Positions 2 to 61,413 are shown, counted from the first letter of the stretch. The stretch is DNA of 64,000 nt from Candidatus Omnitrophota bacterium (GCA_043798375.1 JAZDOS010000029.1:62955-126954), one strand, 5' to 3'. Notes: generated by a model not told the origin, from the letters alone. Made by a program: numbers and translations.

Positions 2-370
2 CTGTGCTATGTAACGCCGTCCGAACACCTGAGACTGCCGACATTGGAAGACGTCAGGGAAGGCGTCATCGCAAGCCTGATCGCCGCTCACGCAGGCGAT
101 ATCGCGAAGGGCGTAAAAGGCGCAATCGACTGGGATATCGCTATCTCGAAGGCGAGAAGGGCAAGGGACTGGGAGAAGCAGTTCAAGCTGGCTCTGGATA
201 AGGAGAAGCCGAGGATATATCGCAAGACGTCAAAGCCCGGCGCGAAAGACGTCTGCACCATGTGCGGCAAGTACTGTTCTATCAAGGTTTCAGAGAAGTG
301 CCTTAAGGGACTGTCCCCAACGCCCAGAGCTACTAATCGTAGGGGACTGTCCCATAAGGTCGCTCATTAA
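2..370 (+). CDS. thiC: Phosphomethylpyrimidine synthase ThiC, C-terminal part (5' truncated by window edge)
   Basis: Frame-2 translation reads ...[51 protein letters not shown]. This matches the conserved ThiC C-terminus including the Cys cluster. Stop codon at 368-370. Confidence 0.8.
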
Positions 371-371
371 A

Positions 372-450
372 ATTTTTCGATACAGCAGTAAAATGTGCTG
401 TGTCGAGTGGTTCGCCACATCACATTCCGAAGAGCGATAAATTTCACAGG
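372..450. repeat. Short copy of the 61148-61345 element (opposite orientation)
   Basis: See the paired feature. Lies in the intergenic region immediately 3' of thiC. Confidence 0.6.
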
Positions 451-2684: not shown

Positions 2685-2936
2685 ATGAGAGCACAGCATA
2701 TAAATATCACGATCCCGGCCAATTTGAAGATAAGGATCGATGAGGAATCAAGGCGGGAGCATATCGGGAGAAGCACTATTATCCAGAAAGCCGTCAGTCT
2801 ATATCTGGAACTTATAAAAAAGAAGAGAATCAGGGCGCTTCTTGCGGAAGGCTATAATGAAATGGCGGGGGAATCGCTTAAAATTACGCATGAATTTGAG
2901 TTGTTAGACGATGAGGCGATGAAGTATGCCGATTAA
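2685..2936 (+). CDS. Ribbon-helix-helix antitoxin (CopG/MazE-like)
   Basis: 83 aa. N-terminal INITIPANLKIRIDEESRREHIGRSTIIQKAV is a typical RHH fold. Overlaps the downstream toxin gene by 11 nt. Confidence 0.7.
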   Translation: MRAQHINITIPANLKIRIDEESRREHIGRSTIIQKAVSLYLELIKKKRIRALLAEGYNEMAGESLKITHEFELLDDEAMKYAD

Positions 2937-3270
2937 ACGCGGCGATATCTTCTATGTGGATTTAAATCCCGCAAAAGGTTCTGAGCAGGCAGGCAGGAGG
3001 CCTGTGCTTATCATTCAAAACGATATCGGTAATGCTCATGCCCCTACCGTTATTATCGCGCCGCTCACGACTAAGAAACTATCCAAAGAATATCCGACCA
3101 ACGTACACGTCAAGAAAGGTGTCGCCGGATTAAAAGAAGATTCAGCCGTGTTATTGTCGCAGGTTAGGACAATCGATAAAACAAGGTTGGGGAAAAGAGT
3201 GGGCGGCTTTCCGGCAGACATTATGCTTAAGGTTGATGAGGCGATCAAAATAAGCTTGGGGCTTGTCTAA
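2926..3270 (+). CDS. mazF: MazF/PemK-family type II toxin endoribonuclease
   Basis: 114 aa. [37 protein letters not shown] is the canonical PemK/MazF signature. Confidence 0.85.
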
Positions 3271-3278
3271 AAAAGAGA

Positions 3279-3695
3279 ATGAAAACATATACCCAATATC
3301 TCTGGCTCAACACGAAGAAACGGCATGAATTTGTGAATATAACCTCCGATGTCGAGGCCGCTGTCGGGAAGAGCGGCGTCAAGGAAGGCCTGTGCCTCGT
3401 CAACGCAATGCATATCACAGCCAGCGTATTTATCAACGACAATGAATCGGGGCTGCATCAGGATTTCAGCGAATGGCTGGAAAGGATAGCCCCTTACGGT
3501 AAAGACAAGTATAAACATAATTTGACCGGCGAGGATAACGCCGATGCGCACTTGAAGCGGACGATAATGGGGCGCGGGGTGGTGGTTGCGATTACGGGCG
3601 GTAAGCTCGATTTCGGGCCATGGGAAGCGATCTTCTACGGTGAGTTCGACGGGCAACGCAGGAAGCGCGTGCTTGTTAAAATAATCGGGGAGTGA
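3279..3695 (+). CDS. yjbQ: YjbQ/UPF0047 family protein (secondary thiamine-phosphate synthase enzyme family)
   Basis: 138 aa, full length. Conserved [56 protein letters not shown]. Confidence 0.8.
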
Positions 3696-10282: not shown

Positions 10283-10291
10283 AGGACGCTA

Positions 10292-10320
10292 TTGACAGAA
10301 ACGACTATTGGCTTTATAAT
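10292..10320 (+). promoter_or_regulatory. Consensus sigma70 promoter
   Basis: TTGACA, exactly 17 nt, TATAAT. Sits 12 nt upstream of ATG 10332, giving a very short leader. Confidence 0.5.
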
Positions 10321-10331
10321 CATAATAAAGC

Positions 10332-15936: not shown

Positions 15937-15954
15937 TAGTTAAATAAATTTTTC

Positions 15955-16161
15955 GGGTCCTGCCGAAGGAATCTCCGCGAGGGATTGTGCTCAAGCGGGA
16001 CGTTAAAATCGCGAGCGGGCACGGTTTTTTGGCCCTTACCAATACAACCTGCGAGGTTAAACGGTATAAAACTACCGGCAAACCTCGCAGGTTGTATTGG
16101 TGATGCCAAAAAGGGCGAGCAATTTTACCTGGAAAGAAAAGCCGAGGGAGCGGCAGGACCC
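15955..16161. repeat. Nested inverted-repeat element, copy A
   Basis: Shares the core GGGATTGTGCTCAAGCGGGACGTTAAAATCGCGAGCGGGCA..CCAATACAACCTGCGAGGTT-[22 nt]-AACCTCGCAGGTTGTATTGG with 26690-26970. Flanked by GGGTCCTGCCG at 15955-15965 and CGGCAGGACCC at 16151-16161. Confidence 0.6.
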
Positions 16162-16249
16162 GAAAAATTTAATGTGAGTCAATTCGTGATCTTGGAACAA
16201 TAGCACAAAATTGATTTTTGAATCGGCGTATGGTATAATGCCCGATATT

Positions 16250-16756
16250 ATGGAAGAGGAGAAAGGCCAGAAAGAATTATTCGAGTTCGAGAAGCCCAAA
16301 AGGTCGTTCCCGAAGCTCTCAAGCTTTCTTCCGAAGGCTGACTTTGAAAGAAATATCCTTATAACCCTAACGCTTGAGAAGATCATATTCATTTCCATAG
16401 GGTTAATTCTGGCCATGGTCGTCGTTTACGCGCTCGGAGTCGAAGTCGGCAAGGCGAAGACGGCTGTCCAAAAGGCAAGAGGGGCCGGCCAAATCGTTCA
16501 GCAGGCAAGCGTGAATAAAGCGGCGCCTATCACACAGCCGCCGGCGCCTTATATTATCATTGCCGGCGCTTACTCGCGTAAGGAGAACGCCTTATCAGTT
16601 ATGGCGCGTTTAAGGCAGGCGGGTTTTGACGCATATATAGGCAAAAGCGCTCCGCTATTTCAGGTATGGATAGGGGCCAAAACAAGCGCTGACGCGCAAA
16701 GAGAGCTGGCCAGAGTAAAAAAACTATGCAAGGACGCGTATTTAAAAACACGGTAG
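16250..16756 (+). CDS. SPOR-domain protein with one TM helix (peptidoglycan-binding)
   Basis: C-terminal YIIIAGAYSRKENALSVMARLRQAGFDAYIGKS..LFQVWIG is a SPOR domain. TTGATT-17-TATAAT (16211-16239) overlaps the upstream in-frame ATG (16238) and the TTG ORF-track start. ATG 16250 is therefore chosen. Confidence 0.6.
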   Translation: MEEEKGQKELFEFEKPKRSFPKLSSFLPKADFERNILITLTLEKIIFISIGLILAMVVVYALGVEVGKAKTAVQKARGAGQIVQQASVNKAAPITQPPAPYIIIAGAYSRKENALSVMARLRQAGFDAYIGKSAPLFQVWIGAKTSADAQRELARVKKLCKDAYLKTR

Positions 16757-16782
16757 ATGTTTAAACTAAAGGGGGTATTAAG

Positions 16783-17136
16783 ATGTCTCAGCATCCCAGT
16801 CTAAGTTCATCGGATAAGGATAAACAGCATAGATCCGTATTGAAAAGGTATGAAAAGGTTAAGATCTTAAAAGACAAGGAAAAGTGGAAAGACGGCGATT
16901 CCGTATACGGACTACCCAAGGTAAAGATCGTAAGATTCAAGATCAAAAAAGAGAAGGCGGCCGCAGCCGAAGGCGCTGAAAGCCTTGAAGGCGCAGCACC
17001 GGGTACAGAAGCTGCACCGACTCAAGCAGGCGCAGCGAAAACCGCCGGCCCCGCAAAGGGACAGGCCCCGGCAAAGGGAGCCGCGTCGAAGGAAGGCGCT
17101 AAACCCGCCGGTGAAGGAAAGAAAGAAGCGAAATAG
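16783..17136 (+). CDS. Small basic protein (Sbp-like) with Ala/Gly/Lys-rich low-complexity tail
   Basis: MSQHPSLSSS..RSVLKRYEKVKILKDKEKWKDGDSVYGLPKVKIV resembles the small-basic-protein family. The tail is A/G/K/P-rich. Confidence 0.5.
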   Translation: MSQHPSLSSSDKDKQHRSVLKRYEKVKILKDKEKWKDGDSVYGLPKVKIVRFKIKKEKAAAAEGAESLEGAAPGTEAAPTQAGAAKTAGPAKGQAPAKGAASKEGAKPAGEGKKEAK

Positions 17137-18234
17137 TTGAAAACGATCCATGTCCGTCTTAAAGAACGCTCTTACGATATAGTCGTAGGGCTTGATTTAT
17201 TGTCGAAGACAGGCGCTTTATTGCGAAAACTCAAGATAGGTAAAGACGCCGTCGTAATTACGAATAAACCGCTTATGGGCCTCTATAAACGGGACCTGGA
17301 AAGATCCCTCCATAAAAACGGGTTCACCGTCCGATTCGAACTCGTGCCTGATTCCGAAAAGGCGAAATCCTCTAACGTCGCGTTGAAACTGGCCTCCAGG
17401 ATAGCCGCCTACGACAAAAAAAGATCGGTATTTATTATCGCTTTCGGCGGCGGCGTCATCGGAGACCTGGCGGGATTCGTCGCGGCGATATACAAGAGAG
17501 GCGTGCCGTATGTCCAGATCCCTACCACGCTTTTAGCGCAGGTCGATTCCGCGATAGGCGGCAAGACTGCCATAGACCTCAATATAGCGAAGAACCTTGT
17601 CGGCGCCTTTTATCAGCCTCGTATGGTAATATCGGACATATCGCTCTTGGAGACGCTGCCCGCCCGGCAGATAAGAAACGGCCTTGCGGAGGTGATAAAA
17701 TACGGCGTGATCAAAGACAGGCGGCTGTTCGCTTTCCTGGAAAAAAAGTATTCCGACATTTTGAAGTATGACAGGGGCAGCCTGGAGTATGCTGTTTTGA
17801 GATCGAGCCGCATCAAGGCGAAGGTCGTCGAACGCGACGAGCTTGATAGAACCGGATTGAGGGTTATATTGAACTATGGCCATACGGTGGGACACGCTAT
17901 CGAGAGCGCATCCTCATACTCGTCCAGATATAACCACGGCGAGTCAGTGGCGATCGGTATGGCTGTGGCCTGCGACATCGCGTTAAAACTTAAATTGACG
18001 AACCCCGCGGTTTCGGAAAGGATCAAGGCGCTAATCAAAAAAATCGGCCTTCCCGCGAAAATCACGGGCCTTAGCCTCTCGAAGATACGCGGATCTTTAG
18101 CGCATGATAAGAAGTTTATGCGGGGGAAAAACAGGTTTGTTCTGCCCGTCTCGGTCGGAGAGGTAAGGGTCTTCGACGGAGTGCCTGACAAAATAATAAC
18201 CGAAGCCATTAAAAAGAATTTGAAAAACGGCTGA
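17137..18234 (+). CDS. aroB: 3-dehydroquinate synthase
   Basis: FGGGVIGDLAGFVAA..VPYVQIPTTLLAQVDSAIGGKTAIDL..NYGHTVGHAIE. The TTG start is taken from the ORF track. Confidence 0.85.
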   Translation: MKTIHVRLKERSYDIVVGLDLLSKTGALLRKLKIGKDAVVITNKPLMGLYKRDLERSLHKNGFTVRFELVPDSEKAKSSNVALKLASRIAAYDKKRSVFIIAFGGGVIGDLAGFVAAIYKRGVPYVQIPTTLLAQVDSAIGGKTAIDLNIAKNLVGAFYQPRMVISDISLLETLPARQIRNGLAEVIKYGVIKDRRLFAFLEKKYSDILKYDRGSLEYAVLRSSRIKAKVVERDELDRTGLRVILNYGHTVGHAIESASSYSSRYNHGESVAIGMAVACDIALKLKLTNPAVSERIKALIKKIGLPAKITGLSLSKIRGSLAHDKKFMRGKNRFVLPVSVGEVRVFDGVPDKIITEAIKKNLKNG

Positions 18235-18246
18235 ATAGGAGAAAAA

Positions 18247-18708
18247 ATGCGCCACTCTTTACGTAACTTCAGGAATGAGGACGCCTTTGGCGTAAAAGAT
18301 CTGATACTTGGAATTCTCGCGAAAGAGTATCCTTTCGACAAGAGCGCATACTCTGACAGCGACCTTGATAAGATCGTCGAGACCTACGGCGGCGTCAGGG
18401 ATTCCTTCTTCGTTATCGAAGAAGGCGGTGAGGTCGTAGGAACGGTCGGGGTGAAAGAGGAGTCGAGGGACGAGGCGCTGTTAAGGAGGCTCTTCGTGGA
18501 CTTGAAGCACAGGAAGCACGGTTACGGCACCGAGCTTCTCGATAAAGCCGTCGCTTTCTGCGGGGAAATGGGCTATAAAAAAATATACTTCAGGTGCACG
18601 GACAGGATGTCCGACGCGATGAAGCTCTGTCTTAAAAAAGGCTTCAAAGAAACGGAGAAGCTCGAAGTAAGCGGCTTCAAAATACATAAACTCGAGTTGG
18701 GGCTTTGA
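18247..18708 (+). CDS. GNAT-family N-acetyltransferase
   Basis: LRRLFVDLKHRKHGYGTELLDKAV is the acetyl-CoA-binding motif A (R/Q-x-x-G-x-G/A). Confidence 0.75.
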   Translation: MRHSLRNFRNEDAFGVKDLILGILAKEYPFDKSAYSDSDLDKIVETYGGVRDSFFVIEEGGEVVGTVGVKEESRDEALLRRLFVDLKHRKHGYGTELLDKAVAFCGEMGYKKIYFRCTDRMSDAMKLCLKKGFKETEKLEVSGFKIHKLELGL

Positions 18709-19100
18709 TGAAAGTTCACGAAACCGAGATAAGGGTAAGATACCAGGAGACGGACAACATGGGTGTGGTCTATTACGCGAATTACTTAACCTGGTTCGAG
18801 GTGGCAAGGACCGAATATTTCCGGGCAGCGGGGCTGGTCTACCGCAAGCTTGAAGAGAAGGGGATATATCTTATGGTGGCGAGCGCTTCCTGCCAGTACA
18901 GGTCTCCTGCCAGGTATGACGATGTCGTTAAGCTCCATGCGTGGGTGCCGGAACTCAAAAATTCAAGCCTTAAATTCGCGTATAAATTATTTGTCGGCGA
19001 AAAAGTGATCGCGCAGGGAGAGTCTGTTCACGTATTTACCGACGCTCGGGGCAAGCCGACAAGAATACCCGAAGAAGTAAGAAGATTATTCCATCCCTAA
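18705..19100 (+). CDS. Acyl-CoA thioesterase, YbgC/4HBT hot-dog family
   Basis: ETEIRVRYQETDNMGVVYYANYLTWFEVARTEYF is the YbgC signature. Confidence 0.8.
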   Translation: MMKVHETEIRVRYQETDNMGVVYYANYLTWFEVARTEYFRAAGLVYRKLEEKGIYLMVASASCQYRSPARYDDVVKLHAWVPELKNSSLKFAYKLFVGEKVIAQGESVHVFTDARGKPTRIPEEVRRLFHP

Positions 19101-19559
19101 CGTAACTACAGAATCTTTTTTCTGTAAAACAACCTTGTCCTTGTCTATCTTAATCACCTTTGCGCCGCTGATAATATCTCCGGTCGCCACAATAACGTTA
19201 TTGACAATCGCCCTGGGCCCATCCACCAGCTCCATTACGCCGTTCAGGACAAAATCCGGAAACTTCCCCTTTGCCGGTTTCGACCTGGACGCGCCGGTAT
19301 AGGTTTCGGCAACCGGAAAATCATCCGTACCCATATCGATCGTCGATATGGGTTTATAGATGGCTTCGGTGACAGCCGAGCCTGCTTTCGCCCCGCTTTT
19401 GCCTGGCGAAAACGAAACCTGTTTTATTGTAACGCCCAACAGCATAATGAAAATTATCAAAAGCACGACGGGCGCGAAATTCTTTTTATTCGGGCTTTGT
19501 CCCGTCCCGGGCCCTTTGAGTCCTTGAGCTTTCTTCAGCGCTTCCTGCACTATGCTCAT
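19086..19559 (-). CDS. Membrane-anchored protein, possible ExeB/GspB-like partner of ExeA
   Basis: 157 aa with N-terminal TM segment APVVLLIIFIMLLGV. Lies directly downstream of the exeA-like gene on the minus strand. Confidence 0.4.
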   Translation of the reverse strand: MSIVQEALKKAQGLKGPGTGQSPNKKNFAPVVLLIIFIMLLGVTIKQVSFSPGKSGAKAGSAVTEAIYKPISTIDMGTDDFPVAETYTGASRSKPAKGKFPDFVLNGVMELVDGPRAIVNNVIVATGDIISGAKVIKIDKDKVVLQKKDSVVTLGME

Positions 19560-19760
19560 CCCGTTAGACCTCCTATTTAAGTAATCTAAGCCCCGTCAAT
19601 GGGTCTAACGGGACTCATCCCGTTAGAACCTCAATCTTGAAAATAAAAAAATAACACATTTTTTGCAATAAAACCCGTTTATATAATAAATACATATTCT
19701 GTTAACCCCGTTAGAAATGTAATTTCTAACGGGGTTAAAGGTTCTAACGGGACTCATGTT
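19559..19760. repeat. Cluster of CCCGTTAGA(A/C)C-type palindromic units
   Basis: CCCGTTAGACC..GGGTCTAACGGG, CCCGTTAGAACC..GGTTCTAACGGG and CCCCGTTAGAAATGTAATTTCTAACGGGG within a 200-bp intergenic region. Confidence 0.6.
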
Positions 19761-20584
19761 CGTATGCCCTCCAGTTCTTTAATACTCTTTTCAACTATGG
19801 GTAGGCCCACGACCCTCGTCTCCATGACATACGCGGCCAGCAATGACTTATCGCAAATCATATTGATAATGCGCGGAATACCGCCGGAAAATTTGTATAT
19901 CGTCTCTATGGCGTCGTCGGGAAAATTTATCTCGCCGTTAGAACCGGCTACGGACAGCCTGTGATATATATATCTTCCGACTTCATCTTTGTCCAGAGGC
20001 GTTATGTGGAACCTCACCGCGATGCGCTGCTTCAGCTGTTTCAGGTTCGGCGAGTCTATTTTTACTTTAAGTTCAGGTTGTCCCACCAGAACTATCTGGA
20101 ACAGCTTCTCCTTGTCGGTCTCGAGATTGGAGAGCATCCGTATCTCTTCCAGTATGGAAGGCTTCAGGTTCTGGGCCTCATCGATTATCAGTATAACATT
20201 GTTTCCCCTTGACAGCTCCTCAAGAAGAAAACCGTTGAGCTGGCGGAGCATCGACCCCTTGTTCTTCCGCTCCACAGAAAGGCCGTAATCCTCTATTATC
20301 GACTGCAGGAGTTGAAGCTCGGGCAGGTTTGAGTTAAATATAAAAGCGCTTTTTGTCCTGGCATCGAGCTGGTTCAGGATCGCCCTGCAAAGGGTTGTTT
20401 TCCCGGCCCCTATCTCGCCGGTTATCTCTAAAAAACCCTTGCGCTCTTTTATGCCGTATAACAGGTGGGAAAACGCTTCCTTATGGACACGGCTCAGGAA
20501 GAGAAAGTTCGGATCGCTTGTGACATTGAACGGCCTTTCCTTAAGGCCAAAGAATTCTCTATACATACCGATTATAGTATACAC
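19754..20584 (-). CDS. ExeA/GspA-like AAA ATPase
   Basis: FFGLKERPFNVTSDPNFLFLSRVHKEAFSHLLYGI..GEIGAGKTTLCRAIL..LIIDEAQNL is the ExeA-family signature. Confidence 0.8.
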   Translation of the reverse strand: MYTIIGMYREFFGLKERPFNVTSDPNFLFLSRVHKEAFSHLLYGIKERKGFLEITGEIGAGKTTLCRAILNQLDARTKSAFIFNSNLPELQLLQSIIEDYGLSVERKNKGSMLRQLNGFLLEELSRGNNVILIIDEAQNLKPSILEEIRMLSNLETDKEKLFQIVLVGQPELKVKIDSPNLKQLKQRIAVRFHITPLDKDEVGRYIYHRLSVAGSNGEINFPDDAIETIYKFSGGIPRIINMICDKSLLAAYVMETRVVGLPIVEKSIKELEGIRT

Positions 20585-20684
20585 GCCTCACCCTCGAGTT
20601 GCAAATAAAATAAAATTATATTAAACTTGCTTTTTTTGAAATCCTTATGTATAATTAACGCATATCTTTAAAGGAGAGAAGCGT

Positions 20685-21053
20685 ATGTGGGACGGAATAA
20701 ACAGAAGAAAGTTTCCCAGGGCCAACTATAAATGCCTGATAAGCATAAAGAAACGCCTTACGGCGAAGACGATATCGACCGAGACGGAGAATATAGGCGC
20801 GGGCGGCATATGCGTCATCATAAAAGAAGACCTGGGCCTCTTTCAGGGCGTTGATGTTGAGCTGTACCTGGATGAGAACCGTCCTCCGATAAAGTCGGGC
20901 GGCACGGTGGTATGGGTGGTGAAGAAGTCTTTTTCCAAGAAGGGGAGCTATTTATACGATACGGGCATCGAATTCATAGACATAAGGCCGGAAGACAGGG
21001 AAAAGATATCCGAGCGGGTTGAAGAGATCCTTAAAAATCAGAGGCGTAAATAG
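20685..21053 (+). CDS. PilZ domain protein (c-di-GMP receptor), single domain
   Basis: RRKFPRANY..(RxxxR) and ENIGAGGICV (D/NxSxxG). 122 aa. Upstream TTGCTT-17-TATAAT and AAAGGAGAG RBS. Confidence 0.75.
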   Translation: MWDGINRRKFPRANYKCLISIKKRLTAKTISTETENIGAGGICVIIKEDLGLFQGVDVELYLDENRPPIKSGGTVVWVVKKSFSKKGSYLYDTGIEFIDIRPEDREKISERVEEILKNQRRK

Positions 21054-21092
21054 AAGAAACGCCTGGAAGAAACGCCTGGAAGAAACGCCTGG
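21054..21092 (+). repeat. 3 x 13-bp perfect tandem repeat GAAGAAACGCCTG
   Basis: Three exact tandem copies lying immediately 5' of a consensus promoter. Confidence 0.7.
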
Positions 21093-21098
21093 CACGGC

Positions 21099-21127
21099 TT
21101 GACAAATCATAGAAATTGTGTTATACT
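21099..21127 (+). promoter_or_regulatory. Sigma70-type promoter
   Basis: TTGACA, 17 nt, TATACT. GGAAGGGAGGTG RBS upstream of ATG 21167. Confidence 0.5.
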
Positions 21128-21166
21128 TGTGTAAATTAAAATCAGGAAGGGAGGTGAAATTAAAAA

Positions 21167-21505
21167 ATGAAAAACTTGTTAAAGGGTATAATTATATGTG
21201 TTGCTATATTGATGGTACTTAATATAGCCAATGCATGCTATGCTCAAGATATGGGTAAGAAGATCTACAGAGGCCTAGCGAATATTATAACGGGATGGAT
21301 AGAGCTTCCAAAGAATATATACGACACCAGCGTGGAAGATAATCCTCTCTCTGGTTTAACGATCGGTTTGGCGAAAGGCGTTGGGATGACGATAGTGCGC
21401 ACAGGCGCAGGAGTGTACGAAACGGTTACATTCCCGTTCCCGATTCCGGAAGGCTACGCACCGGTTCTGGAGCCAGAATTTGTTTTCAATAAGGCTGCGA
21501 AATAA
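21167..21505 (+). CDS. Exosortase-system-associated secreted protein (TIGR04073-like)
   Basis: Signal peptide followed by RGLANIITGWIELPKNIYDTSVEDNPLSGLTIGLAKGVGMTIVRTGAGVYETVTFPFP, which matches my recollection of that family. Confidence 0.55.
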   Translation: MKNLLKGIIICVAILMVLNIANACYAQDMGKKIYRGLANIITGWIELPKNIYDTSVEDNPLSGLTIGLAKGVGMTIVRTGAGVYETVTFPFPIPEGYAPVLEPEFVFNKAAK

Positions 21506-21515
21506 GCCCAATCCT

Positions 21516-21560
21516 GATTTCATGGATAAAAATAAGGGGATAGAAGAGATTTTATCCCCT
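21516..21560 (+). terminator. Rho-independent-terminator-like hairpin
   Basis: ATAAAAATAAGGGGATAGAAGAGATTTTATCCCCTTATTTTTAT: 15-bp perfect stem ATAAAAATAAGGGGA/TCCCCTTATTTTTAT (loop TAGAAGAGATTTTA) with a T-rich 3' side. Confidence 0.6.
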
Positions 21561-21671
21561 TATTTTTATCCGCCTTCGCAAACAGTAAGCAATAGAGCAG
21601 GTGCTTCGGCGGATTATATATCTTGATTAAACGGAATAATCACTATATAATACCAACAAAAAGAGGATAGC

Positions 21672-22022
21672 GTGACAGAGAGAAGAAAGTTTTTACGATT
21701 TGAAACCGCGTTGAACGCGATCTGTGACATGGTAAGTCATAATCACAGGGCTTCATATAAAGTAAGAAACATCTCCAAGGAGGGCGCCCTTCTTCTTGTA
21801 GATAAGAAACTCAGGGAAGGGGCCGAAATAAAGCTTTCGATGGACGTGCCCGGAGATAACGTTCCGATATTCGCGTCATGCGAAGTCGCATGGCAGAAAG
21901 GCGGCGAGAATTGCAATCTGTATGAAACCGGCGTCAGGTTCAAGAGTATCGACGGCCCGGACAGGGGAAGGCTCCTCGAATATATTTATCTGCAGTGGTT
22001 AAAATTACTGGATAAAAAATAA
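21672..22022 (+). CDS. PilZ domain protein, single domain
   Basis: GTG start. RRKFLRFE.. and RNISKEGALL motifs. 116 aa. Confidence 0.7.
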   Translation: MTERRKFLRFETALNAICDMVSHNHRASYKVRNISKEGALLLVDKKLREGAEIKLSMDVPGDNVPIFASCEVAWQKGGENCNLYETGVRFKSIDGPDRGRLLEYIYLQWLKLLDKK

Positions 22023-22157
22023 TATGAGCCCCGTTAGAAAATTTTCCTAATTCTACGTTATTTAATGCCACCGTATACATGAATTCTTTACTTAAATCAT
22101 GATTTAGAAATTTGTAAATTTTCTAACGGGGTGAGCGAAGAAAAGAGGCAAGATTAA

Positions 22158-22511
22158 ATGGAAAATGAGAAACCACAAAAGCCTGCTGAAACAGCTCCGA
22201 AAACCAAGGCCCCTCAGGCCGAAGCTAAGCCGGCCGAGAAGAAGGCTCGGGTGAAGAAGGAGAAGCCGGCAAACTGCGCGGGCTGTAACAAGTCCATAAG
22301 AAAAAAGCGCTGGTATTACAGGAACGGCAAAACTTACTGCACGAAGAGGTGCTGGCAGACGACTGAGAAAAAGATTAAAGAGGAGCATCTGGCGGCCGAA
22401 AAAGCAGCTGCTGAAAAGGCAGCCGCCGAGAAAGCCGCTCAAGAGAAGGCCGCAGATGAAAAAGCCCAAACAGATAAAGCGGCCGACGACACTCCGAAGC
22501 TTCAGGGGTAA
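22158..22511 (+). CDS. Lys/Ala-rich zinc-ribbon protein
   Basis: CAGCNKS..x15..CTKRC (four Cys) flanked by KP/AK-rich N-terminus and AAEKAAAEKAAAEKAAQEKAADEKA repeats. Possibly nucleic-acid binding. Confidence 0.45.
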   Translation: MENEKPQKPAETAPKTKAPQAEAKPAEKKARVKKEKPANCAGCNKSIRKKRWYYRNGKTYCTKRCWQTTEKKIKEEHLAAEKAAAEKAAAEKAAQEKAADEKAQTDKAADDTPKLQG

Positions 22512-22555
22512 AAGCCTCAAGCATTCAAACCGTATCTTAAGAACCTTCCTTATAT

Positions 22556-23011
22556 ATGGCTTCTCGGATAAATAAACCCATCCTGGTAAGCGCATGCCTT
22601 GCGGGCATAGACTGTACTTACAGGGGCAGGAACAAGCTCGTACCCTCTATTAAAAAAATGGTCGATGACGGCATTGCCATACCCGTGTGCCCTGAGGTCA
22701 TGGGTGGGATGGGAATCCCCCGCGAAAATTCCGAGATTGTTGGCGGCGGCGGTATGGACGTCCTGATGAAGAGGGCTCGCGTTATAACAATCTCAGGCAA
22801 GGATGTTACCAAAATTTATATTAAAGGCGCGAAGGCAGTCCTTGCGATCGCCGGAATTTTCGGCGTCAGGAAGGCCATTTTAAAATCGAAAAGCCCGGCC
22901 TGCGGGGCGGGGCGGATCTACGACGGGTCTTTTACGAAGAAGCTTAAAAACGGATCCGGCGTAACGGCAAGCCTGCTTTGTCAAAAAGGCGTAAAGGTCT
23001 ATAGTGCTTGA
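22556..23011 (+). CDS. DUF523 family protein (TudS-like Fe-S protein)
   Basis: PILVSACLAGIDCTYRG..CPEV..SPACGAG is the conserved DUF523 Cys pattern. Confidence 0.65.
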   Translation: MASRINKPILVSACLAGIDCTYRGRNKLVPSIKKMVDDGIAIPVCPEVMGGMGIPRENSEIVGGGGMDVLMKRARVITISGKDVTKIYIKGAKAVLAIAGIFGVRKAILKSKSPACGAGRIYDGSFTKKLKNGSGVTASLLCQKGVKVYSA

Positions 23012-23044
23012 AAATTTAGGTAAAAAGGTGGTAGAATAGGGGTC

Positions 23045-23395
23045 ATGGACAAAGAATTTTGCCTGTTCTGCGGAATAGCGAAAAAAGAGATCCCTGCGAA
23101 GATCGCCTATGAGGACGACGCGGCATTGGCATTTGAAGACATAAATCCCAAGGCGCCGGTCCATCTTCTCGTCATACCGAAGCTGCATATAGAAAGGGTG
23201 TCGGATATCCGCGAAGACGGCTTTGAGCTGGTGGGCCATCTGATATCGATAGCAAATAGACTTGCCGAATCCAGGAAGATCAAGGAATCGGGATATAGGC
23301 TAATTTTAAACTGCAACAAAGACGCCGGTCAGGAAGTTTTTCACCTGCACCTGCATCTTCTCGGCGGAAGGAAGTTTTCATGGCCGCCGGGGTAA
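23045..23395 (+). CDS. HIT-family nucleotide hydrolase (Hint-like)
   Basis: CLFCGI..DINPKAPVHLLVIPK..HLHLHLLGG histidine triad. Confidence 0.85.
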   Translation: MDKEFCLFCGIAKKEIPAKIAYEDDAALAFEDINPKAPVHLLVIPKLHIERVSDIREDGFELVGHLISIANRLAESRKIKESGYRLILNCNKDAGQEVFHLHLHLLGGRKFSWPPG

Positions 23396-23414
23396 CGATA
23401 GGAGCCTGACATAA

Positions 23415-23780
23415 ATGGCCGCTAATGAAAGAAGGTCTTTTCCCCGTATAAAGGATGAGGGGCTGTCTCTTAAGCTTAATGCGGGTGATTTCGACACCAC
23501 AACCCATACCCTGAATATAAGCGCATCGGGAATATACTGCAAGGTTGACAGGGAAATGCCTCTCATGTCCAGGGTGCGGGTAGCGCTGGAGCTGCCGGAG
23601 TCATCAGGCGAAAACCGGTCCGTAAAAAACCTCGAGGTCGACGGCGTGGTAGTGAGGGGACACCCTGTCATAATCGACGGCGTGATAAAACATTACGATA
23701 TCGCGATATTTTTCGACAGCCTCTCCCCGAAAAACAGGGATATGCTCCAGGATTATATCTCAAGAACAAAAAAGAAATAG
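23415..23780 (+). CDS. PilZ domain protein, single domain
   Basis: RRSFPRIK and LNISASGIYC motifs. 121 aa. Confidence 0.7.
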   Translation: MAANERRSFPRIKDEGLSLKLNAGDFDTTTHTLNISASGIYCKVDREMPLMSRVRVALELPESSGENRSVKNLEVDGVVVRGHPVIIDGVIKHYDIAIFFDSLSPKNRDMLQDYISRTKKK

Positions 23781-23789
23781 GCGGTTCTT

Positions 23790-24272
23790 ATGTTCACGCT
23801 CGTAGGGCTTTTCTTTATACTGCTTCTTTCGATGATACTCTATATGCTTTACAGAACCGAGCTTACCGCAACGAAGAATAACCGCCATCACGCAAAGGTC
23901 GAGGAGTATTGGACGGGAAAAGAGAGAAGAAAATATACCCGTTTCAAAAAAACGCTGGACGTCATATACACAGTCGCGAAGAAGCCGCATCTTTCCAGTC
24001 GCGGCCATACGATAGATATATCCGAAGGCGGCATGAAACTGGTCCTCGACGAAAAGCTTCCGAAGGGCGCAATAATGGACCTCAAAATTTCGATTCCCGG
24101 CTCATCCCAGGACACGGATGTGGAGGGCGAAATCATCTGGAGCGAAGAGGCGAATTACGATAAACTCTCCGGCAAAAGGCAGTTCTATTACGGCATAAAG
24201 TTCCTGTACATCAAAGAACCGTCCGGAAAACATTTAAGCGACTACATCCGCTCTATCTCCGTACAACCTTAA
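23790..24272 (+). CDS. Membrane-anchored PilZ domain protein
   Basis: N-terminal TM LVGLFFILLLSMILYML, then RRKYTRFK and IDISEGGMKL. Confidence 0.7.
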   Translation: MFTLVGLFFILLLSMILYMLYRTELTATKNNRHHAKVEEYWTGKERRKYTRFKKTLDVIYTVAKKPHLSSRGHTIDISEGGMKLVLDEKLPKGAIMDLKISIPGSSQDTDVEGEIIWSEEANYDKLSGKRQFYYGIKFLYIKEPSGKHLSDYIRSISVQP

Positions 24273-24295
24273 CTCATGCGACAGGCCTTCGAAAA

Positions 24296-24826
24296 ATGGG
24301 AACGATTAAACATCCGGACAAAGTAAAGCTTATCGCAGGCCTTCTCTCCGGAGATGCGGCCCTATTCCAGAAGGTTAAGAAAAGGCTGGAAGAAATATGC
24401 GGAGCCGTTGATCTTGAAAGCGGAATACTGGATTTTGGCCATACGGACTATTACCGCAAGGAGATGGGCGGGGATCTAAAAAGAATATTTTACAGCTTCA
24501 AGAGGCCGGCCGGCCTGGCCGATATCTATAAAGTAAAATTGCGCACCAACCTTATCGAGAAACGGTTTCTTGCAAACGGCAAAAGGGCCGTTAATATAGA
24601 TCCCGGATACCTGAACCTCTCAAAGCTTGTCGTCTTTTCCACAAAAGACTACACCCATAGGATATATTTAAACAAAGGTATCTGTGCCGAGGTAACCCTG
24701 TTCTATAAAGACGGCACTTACAATCCGTGGCCGTGGACATACCCGGATTATAAAACAGGCCCTTATATAAAATTTTTTAATTCGGTCCGCGCGATATATA
24801 AAGAAGGGGGCAAGGCAACTTTATGA
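24296..24826 (+). CDS. DUF4416 family protein
   Basis: 176 aa starting KHPDKVKLIAGLL. Assignment is from recollection of the family. Confidence 0.5.
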   Translation: MGTIKHPDKVKLIAGLLSGDAALFQKVKKRLEEICGAVDLESGILDFGHTDYYRKEMGGDLKRIFYSFKRPAGLADIYKVKLRTNLIEKRFLANGKRAVNIDPGYLNLSKLVVFSTKDYTHRIYLNKGICAEVTLFYKDGTYNPWPWTYPDYKTGPYIKFFNSVRAIYKEGGKATL

Positions 24827-24981
24827 TTATAAAAAAGAAGAGCCTGATAGTGGCGCTCGTTTCCGGCTTTATCATATCCCTGGTGCTCATACTTACCTTG
24901 ATAGGGTATGCCGCATACCTGGAACTCAAAAACGAGAACTTTATAAGGTCCTACGAATGCGCTATGGAGAAGCTTAAGTGA
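24823..24981 (+). CDS. Putative small membrane protein (52 aa)
   Basis: ATGA overlap with the upstream stop. Hydrophobic LIVALVSGFIISLVLILTLIGYAAY. Its stop overlaps the next GTG start. Below the ORF-track cutoff. Confidence 0.3.
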   Translation: MIIKKKSLIVALVSGFIISLVLILTLIGYAAYLELKNENFIRSYECAMEKLK

Positions 24982-26660
24982 AAAAAATTTACATAACCGT
25001 TATCTGCCTCTTTGCCGCAAGTATCGTCATATTCATATCATCGTTCGTTTATCTCGACAAAAATAAGCGTAAAACCTATTACTATGTAATAAATTCGTCC
25101 GGCCGCGATATCGGCATTATAAAGGTGGATAAATTCGTAACGGAGGATAAGCTCATATATAAAACGGCCGCCCTGGTGCCTTATGGCGAAATTATCACGG
25201 AAAACAGGTCCAAGATCGTCTATGACCGAAAATACAACCTCGAGAGCTACGCGGCCGAGAGAACGGCGAACGGCGCTGTTGAGACAATATCCGTCGAAAA
25301 AAAAGGCGGCGGCGTGTCGTTCGTATCGAGGCTTAATTCGTGCTTCGCGTTTCTCGAAGATATTCCCACAAGGAAAGAGACTTTCATATTCGAAGAGAAT
25401 TCGCCCGCGACCTATTTGCCGATAATAGAGAACTACGATTTCGCAAGGGGAAGGAGCCAGGGGTTCAGCGCAATATCCTGCTTCATGGACTGGGAATTGC
25501 CGCCGATGAAAAGGTTCGTCACGCTCACCTCGATAAGGGACGAATACTTAAAGATAGGGCGTAAAAAGATAAAAACCGAGAATCTGCTCTTAAAGATAAA
25601 AAATTATCCTCAAGGCAGCGTCTGGGTGGCTAAAATAGACCGGTCGCTTATAAAGATAGAGATGCCGGCTGTTGCCCTTAAAATAACAAGGACATTCTCT
25701 CCATGGGAACTTACGTCAAAAAATTATATCGGCCGGAGCAAAGATTATACGTCCAGGGATATTGCGTTCAAAAATAACGGAGTTAACCTATCCGGCACGC
25801 TGACCTTTCCTCTGAAAGAAGGTAAATACCCGGCCGTCCTTCTCGCCGGCCCTGATGGGCCTGAAGACCGCAATCTCAGGGGCCTCTTCGCTGATTTAGC
25901 CGAGACCCTGTCAAGAAACGGTCTTACGGTATTGAGGTTTGACAAGCGCGGAGTCGGTTCGAGCGACGGAAGCTTGGCGTCTCTTTCGGAAGATGAAGAG
26001 ACGGACGACCTTGCCAGGGCCCTGGATCTTCTGGCTGCCCAAAAAGAGGCTGATCCGCAAAGCCTCTTCATTTTAGGCCATTCGCGCGGATGCTTTCGCG
26101 CCTTGAAACTCGCATCCGAAAAAAATTACATAAAGGGGCTCATCCTGATGGCGCCGGAAATATACTCCAGGTACGGCGCCAAGGAAAATTTTGAAAATTA
26201 TGACAAAATATTTTTTGACAAAAAGTGGGGCCAGGACTATTTAAAATCCGTGAAGAAATCTCTGGAAGAGATAAAGGACAGGGCGTCGCGATCCAAGGGG
26301 AACTGGGCTTTCATCCTGTGGAAAAGGTGTTTCGTAAAGAGGGTCAAGGAAGAGATGAACAGAATTCCATCCCTTTTCATAAAAAATGTAAAAGTTCCGG
26401 TACTCATCCTTCAGGGAAGGCAAGACAGCCCCTCCTCGATGGAATCGTCATTCCTTCTCGACAGGATGCTTGAAGATGGCGGCAATATTAGCCACGCGTT
26501 GACCTATTACGGCTATCTGGGCCGCTACTTTGGCAAGAAGGTAAACGACGGCATATACAAAATACATTATGCGGCCGATAAAGACGTCCTGGACAATATC
26601 ATAAACTGGATTGCCAAAATGGCAGCCGCGCCGCAAGAAACTTCCCCGCAAACAGCGTAA
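24978..26660 (+). CDS. Membrane-anchored alpha/beta-hydrolase (S9/dienelactone-hydrolase-like)
   Basis: N-terminal TM. C-terminal AVLLAGPDGPEDRN..RFDKRGVGSSDG..GHSRG nucleophile elbow. Confidence 0.65.
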   Translation: MKKIYITVICLFAASIVIFISSFVYLDKNKRKTYYYVINSSGRDIGIIKVDKFVTEDKLIYKTAALVPYGEIITENRSKIVYDRKYNLESYAAERTANGAVETISVEKKGGGVSFVSRLNSCFAFLEDIPTRKETFIFEENSPATYLPIIENYDFARGRSQGFSAISCFMDWELPPMKRFVTLTSIRDEYLKIGRKKIKTENLLLKIKNYPQGSVWVAKIDRSLIKIEMPAVALKITRTFSPWELTSKNYIGRSKDYTSRDIAFKNNGVNLSGTLTFPLKEGKYPAVLLAGPDGPEDRNLRGLFADLAETLSRNGLTVLRFDKRGVGSSDGSLASLSEDEETDDLARALDLLAAQKEADPQSLFILGHSRGCFRALKLASEKNYIKGLILMAPEIYSRYGAKENFENYDKIFFDKKWGQDYLKSVKKSLEEIKDRASRSKGNWAFILWKRCFVKRVKEEMNRIPSLFIKNVKVPVLILQGRQDSPSSMESSFLLDRMLEDGGNISHALTYYGYLGRYFGKKVNDGIYKIHYAADKDVLDNIINWIAKMAAAPQETSPQTA

Positions 26661-26689
26661 TAACGCTTCGATTAATTTCGGCGATTTTA

Positions 26690-26970
26690 GGGTCCTGCCG
26701 TCCTTCGATTTAACTCAAGGACATGCCCCGAGCGTAGTCGAGGGGCCGCTCCCTCACGGAATCCCCGTAGGGATTGTGCTCAAGCGGGACGTTAAAATCG
26801 CGAGCGGGCATGGTTTTTTGCCCTTACCAATACAACCTGCGAGGTTTGCTGGCAGCTATCTACCTGTTAACCTCGCAGGTTGTATTGGCTATGCAAAAAG
26901 AGCGAGCGATTTTACCGAGCAAAATTTTCCTCGCTGGGGAAAATTTTGCGATCCCGCGAAGCACAATCCC
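26690..26970. repeat. Nested inverted-repeat element, copy B
   Basis: Same core as 15955-16161, with the 20-bp stem CCAATACAACCTGCGAGGTT/AACCTCGCAGGTTGTATTGG but a different 22-nt loop. Additionally bounded by imperfect TIRs GGGATTGTGCTCAAGCGGGACG (26771) and CGATCCCGCGAAGCACAATCCC (26949). Confidence 0.6.
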
Positions 26971-27075
26971 GAAAGGGGATTCTTTTTAGCAGCGAAAAAA
27001 TTCGATTTCATTTACATTGACGTTGCTTTTTTTGTATGCTATATTTAATCGAAATGCGAAACGAGGTTTTGACCC

Positions 27076-27462
27076 ATGACAAAAAAAGAAGAGTTCATTG
27101 ATAGAAGAGGCTCTATTCGGCTGAGGATCCCCGTAAGCATTGCCTATCAAACATCAGGCAATGGCAGAGTTCATACGGTTACGGCCAAAGACATATCCGC
27201 CGAAGGCGCGAGGTTCGAGGCCCACGACAAGCGCCTCAAAGAATCCGATATTCTGGATATGAAGATAGGCATCCCTGAGATATCCGGAGACGGGGTCCGC
27301 GCAACGGGCGCCGTTATATGGAAAAAACGTTTATCGCTTGAGGATAAGTCGCCGTTCGATATCGGCATCGAATTCGGCGAGATAGCGGAAGACGACAAAA
27401 ACGGTTTTCTTAAATTTTTATGTGATTTTATATATAAACTACCGGAGGAAAAAAAGAGATGA
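27076..27462 (+). CDS. PilZ domain protein, single domain
   Basis: DRRGSIRLRIP and AKDISAEGARF motifs. 128 aa. Confidence 0.7.
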   Translation: MTKKEEFIDRRGSIRLRIPVSIAYQTSGNGRVHTVTAKDISAEGARFEAHDKRLKESDILDMKIGIPEISGDGVRATGAVIWKKRLSLEDKSPFDIGIEFGEIAEDDKNGFLKFLCDFIYKLPEEKKR

Positions 27463-30709: not shown

Positions 30710-30847
30710 ATGAAAACAGTTGCCATTATCTCGATAATGATATTTTTATGCCTTGGATTAACCGGGTGCGGCGAAACCATTTCCGGCGCAGGAAAGGATG
30801 TCAACAGGATGGGTAAGGGGGTTTCCACCTTCTTCTTCAGGCAGTAA
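30710..30847 (+). CDS. Entericidin EcnA/B-family small lipoprotein (45 aa)
   Basis: MKTVAIISIMIFLCLGLTGCGETISGAGKDVNRMGKGVS. Lipobox followed by the entericidin-like G-x-G-KD..G motif. Below the ORF-track cutoff. RBS GGAGGG upstream. Confidence 0.55.
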   Translation: MKTVAIISIMIFLCLGLTGCGETISGAGKDVNRMGKGVSTFFFRQ

Positions 30848-30860
30848 TAACAGGGTTCAT

Positions 30861-31574
30861 ATGTCAATACGTTTAAGAGAAGTTGACAGCGTAAACATAC
30901 TCGATATCGAAGGCAAAATCGATATCAACTCATCGGATCTCATAGAGATGGTGGGTTGGCTTGTCAATTCCGGCAAGGTGAACATAATCTTCAACCTCGA
31001 AAACACCGACACCGTAGATTATAACGGCCTCTCGATACTGTCCATAGCATACAAAAACGTAACGAACCATAAAGGCAGATTGAAACTGATCAATGTCCCG
31101 CTATCCGTCATCGAACTTCTGAAGGCGGTAAAGCTTGAGGCCGTCTTTGAGATATACGCCGAGGAGGATGCCGCCGTCAGCAGTTTTTTTGACGAGGGGA
31201 TAGACAAGCTCTCCTTAAGAAGGAGATTTCAGCGCCTTGAAATCCATCTGAATGTTTTGTACGGGATAGCCGGCGGCCAAAAGAAGCCGAAGCTATTTGA
31301 CGGGAAAGTACTCAACTTGAGCGCCGCCGGAATCTATATCTACACCCCGTATACTTTCCCCATAAACAGCATGCTCGACCTGGAACTCAATGTGCCGGGC
31401 ATGGGTAAATCTCTCGGGGCCACAGGGAAGGTAAGCTGGCTTGCCGATAAGGAGATACAGCCGCATGCCTATCCCGGGATGGGCGTATCTTTTGTGCACC
31501 TTACCCCGGAAAAAGAGAAGGCGATAGCCGACTTCATAGAAAAAAATGTAACGCACAGGGCCGACTCGTTATGA
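30861..31574 (+). CDS. STAS (anti-sigma-factor-antagonist-like) domain fused to a PilZ domain
   Basis: N-terminal SpoIIAA-like STAS (VNILDIEGKIDINSSDL..KLINVPLSVIELLKAVKL). C-terminal PilZ (RRRFQRLEI..LNLSAAGIYI). Start ATG 30861, chosen to avoid overlap with ecn. Confidence 0.65.
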   Translation: MSIRLREVDSVNILDIEGKIDINSSDLIEMVGWLVNSGKVNIIFNLENTDTVDYNGLSILSIAYKNVTNHKGRLKLINVPLSVIELLKAVKLEAVFEIYAEEDAAVSSFFDEGIDKLSLRRRFQRLEIHLNVLYGIAGGQKKPKLFDGKVLNLSAAGIYIYTPYTFPINSMLDLELNVPGMGKSLGATGKVSWLADKEIQPHAYPGMGVSFVHLTPEKEKAIADFIEKNVTHRADSL

Positions 31575-33433: not shown

Positions 33434-33486
33434 AATGAACCCCGCCCTTCCTAAAGAGGCGGGGTGCTTAAGAAAGGAAGGGCGGG

Positions 33487-34191
33487 GTGAAGAAAAAAAC
33501 GATATCTCACGCAAAACAGTTCGAGGCCATCTCAAAGGTAAGTAAGACGATAACGTCGAGCTTATACCTGGAGGACATCCTTAAACTCATAGTCACCGTT
33601 ACCGCCGAGATAATGAACTCGAAAGTTTGTTCCCTCATGCTTATAGATGAAAAGACCGGGGAGCTTGTCCTTAAAGCCACCCAGTCGATGAGCGAGGCTT
33701 ACAATAAGAAGCCGCCTCTTAAGATCGGCGAAGGCATCGCGGGAAAGGTCGCCGAGGAAAATAAGCCCAAGGCTGTCTACGATATCTCCAAAGAGCCGGA
33801 GTATAAATCGAAGAATATCGCCAAAGATGAGGGATTGAGAAGCCTCCTCTCCGTCCCGCTCGCGGTAAAGGGAAGGGTTATAGGCGTGCTGAACAATTAC
33901 ACATCCGAGCCCCATAAATTCACCAAGACGGAGATCAACATACTGACGACCGTCTCCAACCAGGCGGCGATAGTCATAGAGAACGCGGGCCTCGTGGTGA
34001 AGACTAAGATGATACAGGATGAACTTGAAACCAGGAAGGTCGTTGAGAGGGCAAAAGGTATTTTGATGCGCGAACAAAGCATCTCCGAGGCCGACGCGTT
34101 CAGGAAGATCCAGAAACAGTCCATGGACATGAGAAAATCGATGCGCGAAATTGCCGAGGCGATAATATTGATGGAGAAGATGAAGAAATGA
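33487..34191 (+). CDS. GAF and ANTAR domain RNA-binding regulator
   Basis: GTG start. GAF in the N-terminal ~150 aa. C-terminal ANTAR helix pair RKVVERAKGILMREQSISEADAFRKIQKQSMDMRKSMREIAEAII. Confidence 0.7.
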   Translation: MKKKTISHAKQFEAISKVSKTITSSLYLEDILKLIVTVTAEIMNSKVCSLMLIDEKTGELVLKATQSMSEAYNKKPPLKIGEGIAGKVAEENKPKAVYDISKEPEYKSKNIAKDEGLRSLLSVPLAVKGRVIGVLNNYTSEPHKFTKTEINILTTVSNQAAIVIENAGLVVKTKMIQDELETRKVVERAKGILMREQSISEADAFRKIQKQSMDMRKSMREIAEAIILMEKMKK

Positions 34192-60932: not shown

Positions 60933-61147
60933 AGAGTTATTATAGCGTATTATCAGGATTAATTAAATAGCAAATAAAAGGGTCACACCCATTTATTTTC
61001 GCGCTATAAGCTAACTAATTTTTTCGTCTCTCATCGAAGGCGGAACTTTTGTGGTCGCCTTATACATGGCGTTAGCTGGGCGGCTACGGAAGAATACGGC
61101 GGCATGTGAAGCTCCACCGCCTCTCGGCGTTGTGCTTCGCGGGATCG

Positions 61148-61345: not shown

Positions 61346-61413
61346 TTCCAATTAAAATGTAGTATACTATTTTCCATGAGCTGCCAGCAGGCGCTTAAGA
61401 AAGAAGGTGCAGG

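Follow-up and report, generated by a model that had tools for sequence, protein, structure and literature searches.

Palindromic elements between housekeeping genes

The window analysed here is a 64,000-nt stretch of DNA from Candidatus Omnitrophota bacterium (GCA_043798375.1, JAZDOS010000029.1:62955-126954), with all coordinates counted from its first letter. Its ~70 open reading frames (ORFs) are of a housekeeping nature and include an AddA-like helicase-nuclease, DHQ synthase, many PilZ proteins, an Mbh/complex-I-like operon, ATP synthase and H+-PPase. In the same stretch lie three full palindromic elements (A, B and C) and three element fragments. Elements A and B are two copies of a related structure, which we interpret, with moderate confidence, as members of a new family akin to miniature inverted-repeat transposable elements (MITEs) and REPINs: non-autonomous palindromic repeats that would be mobilised in trans within one Omnitrophota lineage.

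Copies A and B each follow a stop codon and precede the promoter predicted for the gene downstream (TTGATT-17-TATAAT, 16211-16239, after copy A; TTGACG-17-TATATT, 27017-27045, after copy B). Copy A is preceded by the gene for a 227-aa protein without a Pfam match (locus tag V1927_04640) and followed by a SPOR-domain protein gene; copy B lies between an alpha/beta hydrolase gene (24978-26660) and a PilZ gene. An initial annotation of the window had put the copies downstream of envelope-protein genes and upstream of small-protein or PilZ genes. The PilZ neighbour of copy B is there, with the SPOR-domain gene in its stead after copy A, but the envelope-protein assignment of the upstream genes was not borne out. 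Both copies are located where that annotation had placed them, although their limits are wider (15945-16171 for A, ~26679-27005 for B). The parts of the two copies are as follows, with P1 to P4 denoting the helices of the B-type core described below.

15945-16171, plus strand: copy A, whole element (perfect 21-bp terminal inverted repeat; fold z = -9.9)
15981-16024, plus strand: copy A, 5' half of the B-type core (5' arms of P1, P2 and P3, and the junction GAGCGGGCACGG; nhmmer E = 2.5e-14)
16039-16100, no strand assigned: copy A, 62-nt apical hairpin (arms 16039-16058 and 16081-16100; loop 16059-16080)
16112-16129, plus strand: copy A, beginning of the core's 3' half (P3 3' arm; one C-A mismatch)
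26679-27005, plus strand: copy B, whole insertion (327 bp; from alignment against the empty sites of the relatives L002, L003 and L004)
26684-26756, plus strand: copy B, 5' accessory part (F-type-like left end ATTTTAGGGTCCTGCCG, then a 56-nt hairpin module that is absent from copy A)
26770-26970, plus strand: copy B, complete B-type core (P1, P2, P3 with apex, and the P4 hairpin at 26919-26949)
26827-26888, no strand assigned: copy B, 62-nt apical hairpin (arms 26827-26846 and 26869-26888; loop 26847-26868)

Copies A and B share a core and an apical hairpin

The 41-nt start of the core (GGGATTGTGC..GGGCA) is present exactly twice in the window, at 15981 and 26770, and in 0 of 100 shuffles. The 20-nt stem arm CCAATACAACCTGCGAGGTT has four exact occurrences, which form two perfect inverted pairs, one in each copy, and none in the shuffles. 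These matches bear out the shared core and the perfect 20-bp inverted repeat of the initial annotation. The alignment of the copies extends over ~150 nt (about 15971-16129 in A and 26760-26916 in B), with 7 differences outside the loop in ~127 aligned positions (from GGGATTG onward), and the flanks have no similarity beyond the element.

The 20-bp arms of the stems are identical in A and B, and the loops differ at 7-12 of 22 positions. The loops had been called completely different; 10 of 22 positions match as written, but 15 of 22 match when one loop is reverse-complemented (manual count). At the 12 positions that discriminate between the orientations, the loop of B agrees with the inverted loop of A at 8 and with the direct one at 3. 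The notion of a conserved stem with a free loop needs rewording, as the whole 62-nt hairpin is an exchangeable apical module, with other apices elsewhere.

Among all copies, the 62-nt hairpin with the 20-bp stem is found in A and B only, and both also have the left-end motif ..TTTTAGGGTCCTGCCG of F-type elements. Because they share this unusual tip and the F-type left end, A and B are likely to come from one composite ancestor. Exact scans with the 20-nt stem arm gave no match in viral contigs or species-representative genomes, and in JGI metagenomes one chance match without a partner arm. A 17/20 match to the arm at 1902-1921, in a DUF5674 gene, has nothing similar past the 20 nt and was set aside as probably fortuitous; its estimated chance expectation is ~0.004, and the shuffles gave none.

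Copy A is bounded by a perfect terminal inverted repeat, TAAATTTTTCGGGTCCTGCCG, which measures 21 bp (15945-15965 and 16151-16171) and not 11 bp as first annotated. Of the core, copy A contains the 5' half and the apex but only 18 nt from the beginning of the 3' half, without P4 or the 3' arms of P2 and P1. The ends of copy A align with those of a ~390-bp element with an unrelated interior in the relative L007 (6521-6910), which has the same terminal repeat (AAATTTTTGCGGGTCCTGCC...) and occupies the orthologous position just past the stop codon of the 227-aa gene. Judged by these alignments, copy A is a chimera, in which F-type ends surround a truncated B-type core (5' half) and the apical hairpin.

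Copy B occupies a site that is empty in relatives

The gene order DUF4416-hydrolase-PilZ around copy B is kept in L002 (Logan SRR22388041), L003 (JGI 3300009538) and L004 (JGI 3300024056), with hydrolases that are 83% identical in protein and 84-86% in DNA sequence. In 3/3 of these relatives the site is empty, and the hydrolase stop codon almost abuts the conserved PilZ promoter. In the window, a 7-bp direct repeat, TTCGATT, flanks copy B (26672-26678 and 26999-27005). Removal of the insert with one repeat from the sequence gives ..AATAACGCTTCGATTTCATTTAC.., which is colinear with ..AATAACCCCCTTCTTTCATTTAC.. in L002, and the repeat thus fits the empty site of that relative. In L003 and L004 the hydrolase ORF has a shorter C-terminus and runs on into the PilZ promoter, where its stop codon is the TGA of TTGACG, in the -35 box. 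Compared with these, the ORFs of the window (region 26600-26660) and of L002 are extended by 12-16 aa and end at a stop codon of their own.

The region of copy B folds with z = -10.6 relative to shuffles, and the minimum free energy (MFE) structure equals the centroid. The 22-bp imperfect terminal inverted repeat initially assigned to copy B is really formed by the basal helices P1 and P2 of a three-way-junction core, of which copy A holds only the 5' arms. The hairpin and T-run at the end of copy B score as terminator-like; we rejected a terminator reading, as the T-run follows the basal hairpin in copy B only.

The B-type core forms a three-way junction and recurs at unrelated loci

A blastn search and a genome-wide scan with a core 20-mer revealed B-type cores in three other Omnitrophota assemblies: L006 (JGI 3300009538), in a divergent spacer; L008 (GCA_026387115.1), after a SpoIID gene; and L009 (RA.bin12 JAKLDX010000017), after a lipid A biosynthesis gene. 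These loci are unrelated. In genome contigs the 20-mer has two true matches (L008 and L009) and two chance matches inside genes (L010 and L011). The core is co-oriented with the genes in the window, and opposite to both flanking genes in L008 and L009. It is hardly conceivable that A and B arose by a purely local duplication in this contig, without any family: the 20-bp stem is confined to two copies and has no related copy in the viral, genome and metagenome scans, but the flanks of A and B share nothing, and the recurrence of the core in L006, L008 and L009 refutes this explanation.

The predicted folds of copy B and of the cores in L006, L008 and L009 have a common architecture, with outer variable stems, then P1 (GGGATTGTGCT/AGCACAATCCC) and P2 (GCGGGAC/GATCCCGC), followed by two branches, P3 (GTTAAAATCGC/GCGATTTTAC), which carries the apex, and the P4 hairpin (GCAAAATTTTCC..GGAAAATTTTGC). 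The consensus fold of these four complete cores with the apex removed (RNAalifold) contains 53 pairs, 4 of which are changed on both sides yet paired. Placed manually, two are in P1, one is in P4 and one in the outer stem; manual alignment adds one in P2. Copy B has P1 cells that look broken in the consensus fold, but this is due to the alignment being shifted at a 1-nt bulge. In 4/4 complete copies the bases left unpaired at the junction (CGCGAGCGGGCATGG, AGAGCGAGCG and CGA) are invariant.

Between genomes the cores are 92-97% identical. The flanking genes of the window are 84-90% identical to those of L002-L006 and 76% to those of the more distant L007, with 75-85% identity at third codon positions. 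Since core identity exceeds that of third codon positions, the core is either constrained or younger than the divergence of the genomes.

In contrast to the core itself, the tip of P3 takes four forms:

Copies A and B: TTTTTTGCCCTTA, the 62-nt hairpin and CTATGCAAAA
L006: the same base, with only GTAACCTTA instead of the hairpin
L008: a 10-bp GC stem, closed by GAAG
L009: a 12-bp stem with a 43-nt loop

The 62-nt hairpin is one lineage-specific, exchangeable P3 tip among these four apices on the same core.

The scaffold strand of the core folds 3-18 kcal/mol better than its complement in 5/5 B copies, and the preferred strand is likewise better in 4/4 C copies. As a property of the families, this asymmetry does not count as independent evidence; it would fit action on a single folded strand, of either DNA or RNA. 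Non-Watson-Crick pairs on the scaffold strand are balanced, with one G-U (P3 of L009) and one C-A (P3 of copy A).

Several unrelated cores have the same termini

The terminal inverted motif AAATTTTTCG...CGAAAAATTT is common to four or more core types (B, C, D and F) that are otherwise unrelated. Exact copies of the 10-mer AAATTTTTCG number 5 in the window, versus 0.6 expected, and each of them lies at an element end. Ends of this kind are present on A, on C and on >8 elements in relatives, with L005-L009 among the carriers, and the left end of copy B is degenerate. The elements range from about 75 to 400 bp and lie in the spacer from a stop codon to the next promoter or in divergent spacers; units are often tandem, with common CGAAAATTTTTCG junctions, or interrupt one another. 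The window contains, in addition to A and B, the following features.

61150-61340, plus strand: element C, rod-like, of a different core type, with AAATTTTTCG/CGAAAAATTT ends (z = -9.3; nhmmer E = 5e-65 with the C-type profile)
61120-61148, minus strand: fragment of a B-core 3' arm, abutting element C (nhmmer E = 1.4e-5)
61017-61110 (approximate), plus strand: fragment resembling a D-type left half (AATTTTTTCG..GGCGGAACTTTTGTGGTCGCC; by-eye comparison with the D-types of L006, L009 and L012)
370-441, minus strand: mini C-type element with the outer stem only and the apex deleted, which begins at the ThiC stop codon (nhmmer E = 1.1e-7; terminus AAATTTTTCG)

Relatives of element C are found in L006 (two copies), L007 and L008. 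By blastn, the B fragment next to it matches copy B over 27 nt at 96% identity (61130-61156) and the L006 copy over 29 nt at 100% (61120-61148).

D-type elements of ~237 bp with the same termini are located in L006 (3305-3541), L012 (1336-1572), L009 (5153-5389) and L007 (about 640-880); each holds an inner unit, AAAATTT(C/T)GAT..ATC(G/A)AAATTTT, which looks like a nested element. A palindromic repeat rich in CTTCGC/GCGAAG, which we call E-type, adjoins B and C elements in L006 (3810-3910 and 8560-8760). In addition, a ~60-nt segment (..GGCCTCGGTCGGAGGCCTCGGCACTTAGCAAACACCGTGGCTTAATTAAC..) is located between promoter and start codon in L006 (8800-8870) and, in the opposite orientation, in L007 (925-990); it could represent a leader element or a further small repeat.

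Two further sites show the same pattern of presence and absence as the copy-B site, giving three filled/empty comparisons in total, with copies in 5 assemblies. An array in L006 (8114-8760) corresponds to an empty site in the window (20584-20685), and one in L007 (385-900) to the empty window site 10283-10331. The spacer between the 227-aa and SPOR-domain genes differs in each of five genomes, with A in the window, D and C in L006, F in L007, D in L012 and other sequence in L005, and by this comparison it is a turnover hot spot.

The elements as probable non-autonomous mobile repeats

The empty site in relatives, the non-orthologous copies and the lack of a nearby transposase support the initial view of a non-autonomous miniature element. 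A domain search of the ~70 window ORFs found no transposase, integrase or reverse-transcriptase domain, as had already been annotated for transposases. We regard the family as an ordinary kind of genomic parasite or passenger, and not as a new RNA gene. The LCSSGTLKSRAG ORFs that run through the elements exist and are, as had been proposed, spurious, because a six-frame composite of the element has no relative among 5.8 billion proteins. Copy B has no blastn match in plasmid and phage collections, and a core 24-mer and a C-type 23-mer are absent from the viral contigs scanned.

We hypothesize that A and B descend from one composite master copy, and that an enzyme encoded elsewhere in the genome mobilises the elements in trans by recognising the shared termini and/or the invariant junction bases. 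Its substrate would probably be single-stranded and folded, since the better-folding strand is the same at all locations within each family. New copies would enter A/T-rich sites just past genes, and in or beside resident elements, giving rise to nested composites. Rearrangement at the centre of the palindromes, by deletion, replacement or flipping between the inverted arms, may explain why the loop changes fastest and the arms remain perfect. Copy A would later have lost the 3' half of its core, and the 56-nt module may have been gained by copy B or lost by copy A.

Several observations weigh against mobilisation in trans. No transposase or other candidate mobilising enzyme was found among the ~70 window ORFs or the neighbouring genes in L005, L008 and L009. 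The 7-bp repeat at copy B could be a coincidence, TTCGAT being a common element start, and no direct repeat is visible at A, at C or at the elements of L006, L007, L008 and L012, where the palindromic outer AAATTT could hide one. Absence in relatives could reflect loss instead of gain. All compensatory changes come from 4-5 copies, and the loop inversion (8 versus 3 discriminating positions) is suggestive but not significant alone. Finally, invariant junction bases and a core conserved above synonymous sites also fit a function selected in the host.

Comparison with known repeat families

Comparison with described systems places the Omnitrophota elements near several families. REP units are headed by a conserved GT(A/G)G and are mobilised by RAYT transposases; in the REP-RAYT system a single-copy RAYT (Y1 HUH) gene is flanked by the repeats. 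In contrast, the Omnitrophota termini are AAATTTTTCG(A/G), GTAG is absent from the hairpin feet, and the window ORFs include no RAYT gene and have no match to the Y1_Tnp domain. The elements are also larger and branched, with a three-way junction, and have several unrelated cores per terminus. The likeness to REPINs lies in their extragenic position without coding capacity, in conserved inverted arms around a less conserved spacer with compensatory changes, in clusters formed by insertion into or beside copies, and in being longer-lived and better conserved than neutral DNA. The paper on REPINs describes inverted ends that are conserved, with a spacer that is less so, as well as compensatory changes and the formation of clusters when elements insert into or beside existing ones (Bertels and Rainey, 2011; PMC3116915).

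The Omnitrophota elements resemble bacterial MITEs in their terminal inverted repeats, small size, lack of coding capacity, dispersal, insertion polymorphism and size variants due to internal indels. Bacterial MITEs, such as Correia/NEMIS and ERIC, are non-coding intergenic sequences of 100-350 bp with terminal inverted repeats, indel size variants and presence/absence polymorphism. MITEs in the strict sense are derived from DDE transposons and have a target-site duplication of fixed length. In the Omnitrophota elements a possible target-site duplication is seen at one copy (B), and conservation is higher in the inner core than in the stretch from core to terminus, the reverse of most MITEs. 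No autonomous partner with matching ends was found, either in the ~70 ORFs of the window or in the genes adjoining the elements in L005, L008 and L009. The BIMEs of enterobacteria are mosaics or tandem arrays of alternating palindromic units of 35-40 nt in intergenic gaps. Both combine a few types of palindromic unit, in mosaics and in tandem, between genes, but the unit sequences are unrelated, and the Omnitrophota units are long rods or Y-shapes.

The initial annotation had favoured an IS200/IS605-type PATE. PATEs have no terminal inverted repeats but distinct subterminal hairpins, and insert 3' of a conserved tetra- or pentanucleotide. The Omnitrophota elements are likewise non-autonomous and hairpin-rich, mostly without a visible target duplication, but they are palindromic throughout, with perfect or near-perfect terminal inverted repeats. 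No conserved tetranucleotide precedes their left ends (flanks TTAAAT, ATCGCG, TGCAAT, ATATAT, TCAAGT, GAACCG, AAGTGG and TAGGGG), and neither TnpA nor TnpB is encoded in the window. The true terminal repeats and the unconserved left flanks speak against this assignment. Integron attC sites, retrons, CRISPR and Tn3-type ends were also considered and rejected: R'/R'' motifs, cas genes and a reverse transcriptase are all absent, and the pentamers at the flanks have inverted, not direct, orientation.

Alternative explanations

The elements could instead be BIME-like structures that serve the host, at the DNA or mRNA level, by binding host proteins, punctuating transcription or stabilising upstream mRNAs; they would act independently of orientation and may be immobile now. 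This fits their constant position between a stop codon and the next promoter, the conservation of the core above synonymous sites, the invariant unpaired junction bases and the terminator-like hairpin and T-run at the end of copy B. However, relatives have the same gene pair without the element, different element types occupy the same spacer across genomes, the T-run is present in copy B alone, and fragments and chimeras are common, as expected of decaying passengers. We therefore consider a host-serving role unlikely.

Another possibility, which we rate as rather unlikely, is that the B core is the recognition scaffold of an undescribed hairpin-targeting mobilisation system. In such a system a protein would recognise the invariant junction (GCGAGCGGGCATGG / AGAGCGAGCG) together with the AAATTTTTCG feet of a single strand in its folded state, and elements would be inserted preferentially at other hairpins, in their tips or feet. 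Nested composites, exchangeable apices and a core conserved above synonymous sites across genomes would then be accounted for. In a bolder version, the variable apical loop may carry the specificity.

A structured non-coding or cis-regulatory RNA, with the three-way junction as functional core and the variable apex as a peripheral or specificity part, is quite improbable. Several properties are as expected of an RNA, namely the strong and defined fold (MFE equal to centroid in copy B), the compensatory changes in P1, P2 and P4 (P2 by manual alignment), the invariant junction nucleotides and the consistently greater stability of one strand; covariation in the core is, however, equally expected for a DNA hairpin. 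The core is found co-oriented with genes, anti-oriented and in divergent spacers, there is no promoter-like site inside or just upstream of the elements, unrelated cores have the same terminal inverted repeats, relatives have empty sites, fragments and chimeras are numerous, and half of the structure is missing in copy A. With one G-U and one C-A departure, the pairing has no RNA-strand signature. A search of the whole window against Rfam at gathering thresholds returned only a tRNA. For copy B at E <= 10, the only matches with E < 0.01 were generic miRNA-hairpin models, on both strands, and the rest were weak and below gathering; the hairpin models were taken as noise, and no Rfam family was found even at this cut-off. 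In view of the mixed orientation to genes and the absence of both an internal promoter and an Rfam match, neither the cis-regulatory RNA put forward in the initial annotation nor a strand-specific RNA role is supported.

It is very doubtful that the elements are cassette-like units which are not transposed but exchanged between loci by a site-specific recombinase at the palindromic junction CGAAAAATTTTTCG. Tandem units do have such junctions in common, mosaics break at AAATTT-type motifs (element C abutting the B fragment; a truncated C beside B in L008), and most units lack a visible target duplication. Against this, no recombinase gene is located near any array, the copy-B site in relatives is devoid of the AAATTT motif, and chimeras of the copy-A type break inside cores and not only at junctions.

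Unrelated repeats and gene crowding in the window

A second, unrelated repeat family consists of inverted pairs ACCCCGTTAGAAA / TTTCTAACGGGGT at gene ends (5484-5495/5571-5582, 9092-9103/9112-9123, 19706-19717/19723-19734 and 22029-22040/22120-22131), with 8 exact 12-mers versus 0.4 expected. The motif is absent from all loci examined in relatives, and looks like a genome-specific REP-like or shared-terminator hairpin. A ribbon-helix-helix antitoxin / MazF-PemK toxin pair (2685-3270) lies between the copies of a 165-nt direct repeat (2273-2437 and 3278-3442), which are 74% identical and 1005 bp apart; the first copy overlaps a truncated UPF0047-like ORF. A 34-nt leader/start region, GG(T/C)GCTTAAGAAAG..GGGTGAAGAAAA, precedes both the gene of an ANTAR/GAF regulator (33439-33496, where a 14-bp perfect hairpin stands before it) and that of phosphofructokinase (61390-61423). 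Six small PilZ genes are crowded within 11 kb (20685-21053, 21672-22022, 23415-23780, 23790-24272, 27076-27462 and 30798-31574), several with near-identical promoter regions.

Significance

Palindromic interspersed repeats are well studied in proteobacteria. For Omnitrophota, which are known from metagenomes alone, no earlier description could be found; a search of full texts gave no paper on miniature inverted-repeat elements in this phylum. The family is unusual in having one terminus for several unrelated cores, a branched core conserved above synonymous sites, and exchangeable tips. The elements yield spurious ORF calls and break assemblies, and several contigs of relatives are short and end near or in repeat arrays. 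They also mark hot spots of intergenic turnover, which makes them useful for annotation and strain typing in this lineage. Their biological value would rise if the termini and the junction lead to a new mobilising enzyme or to a rule for insertion at hairpin tips.

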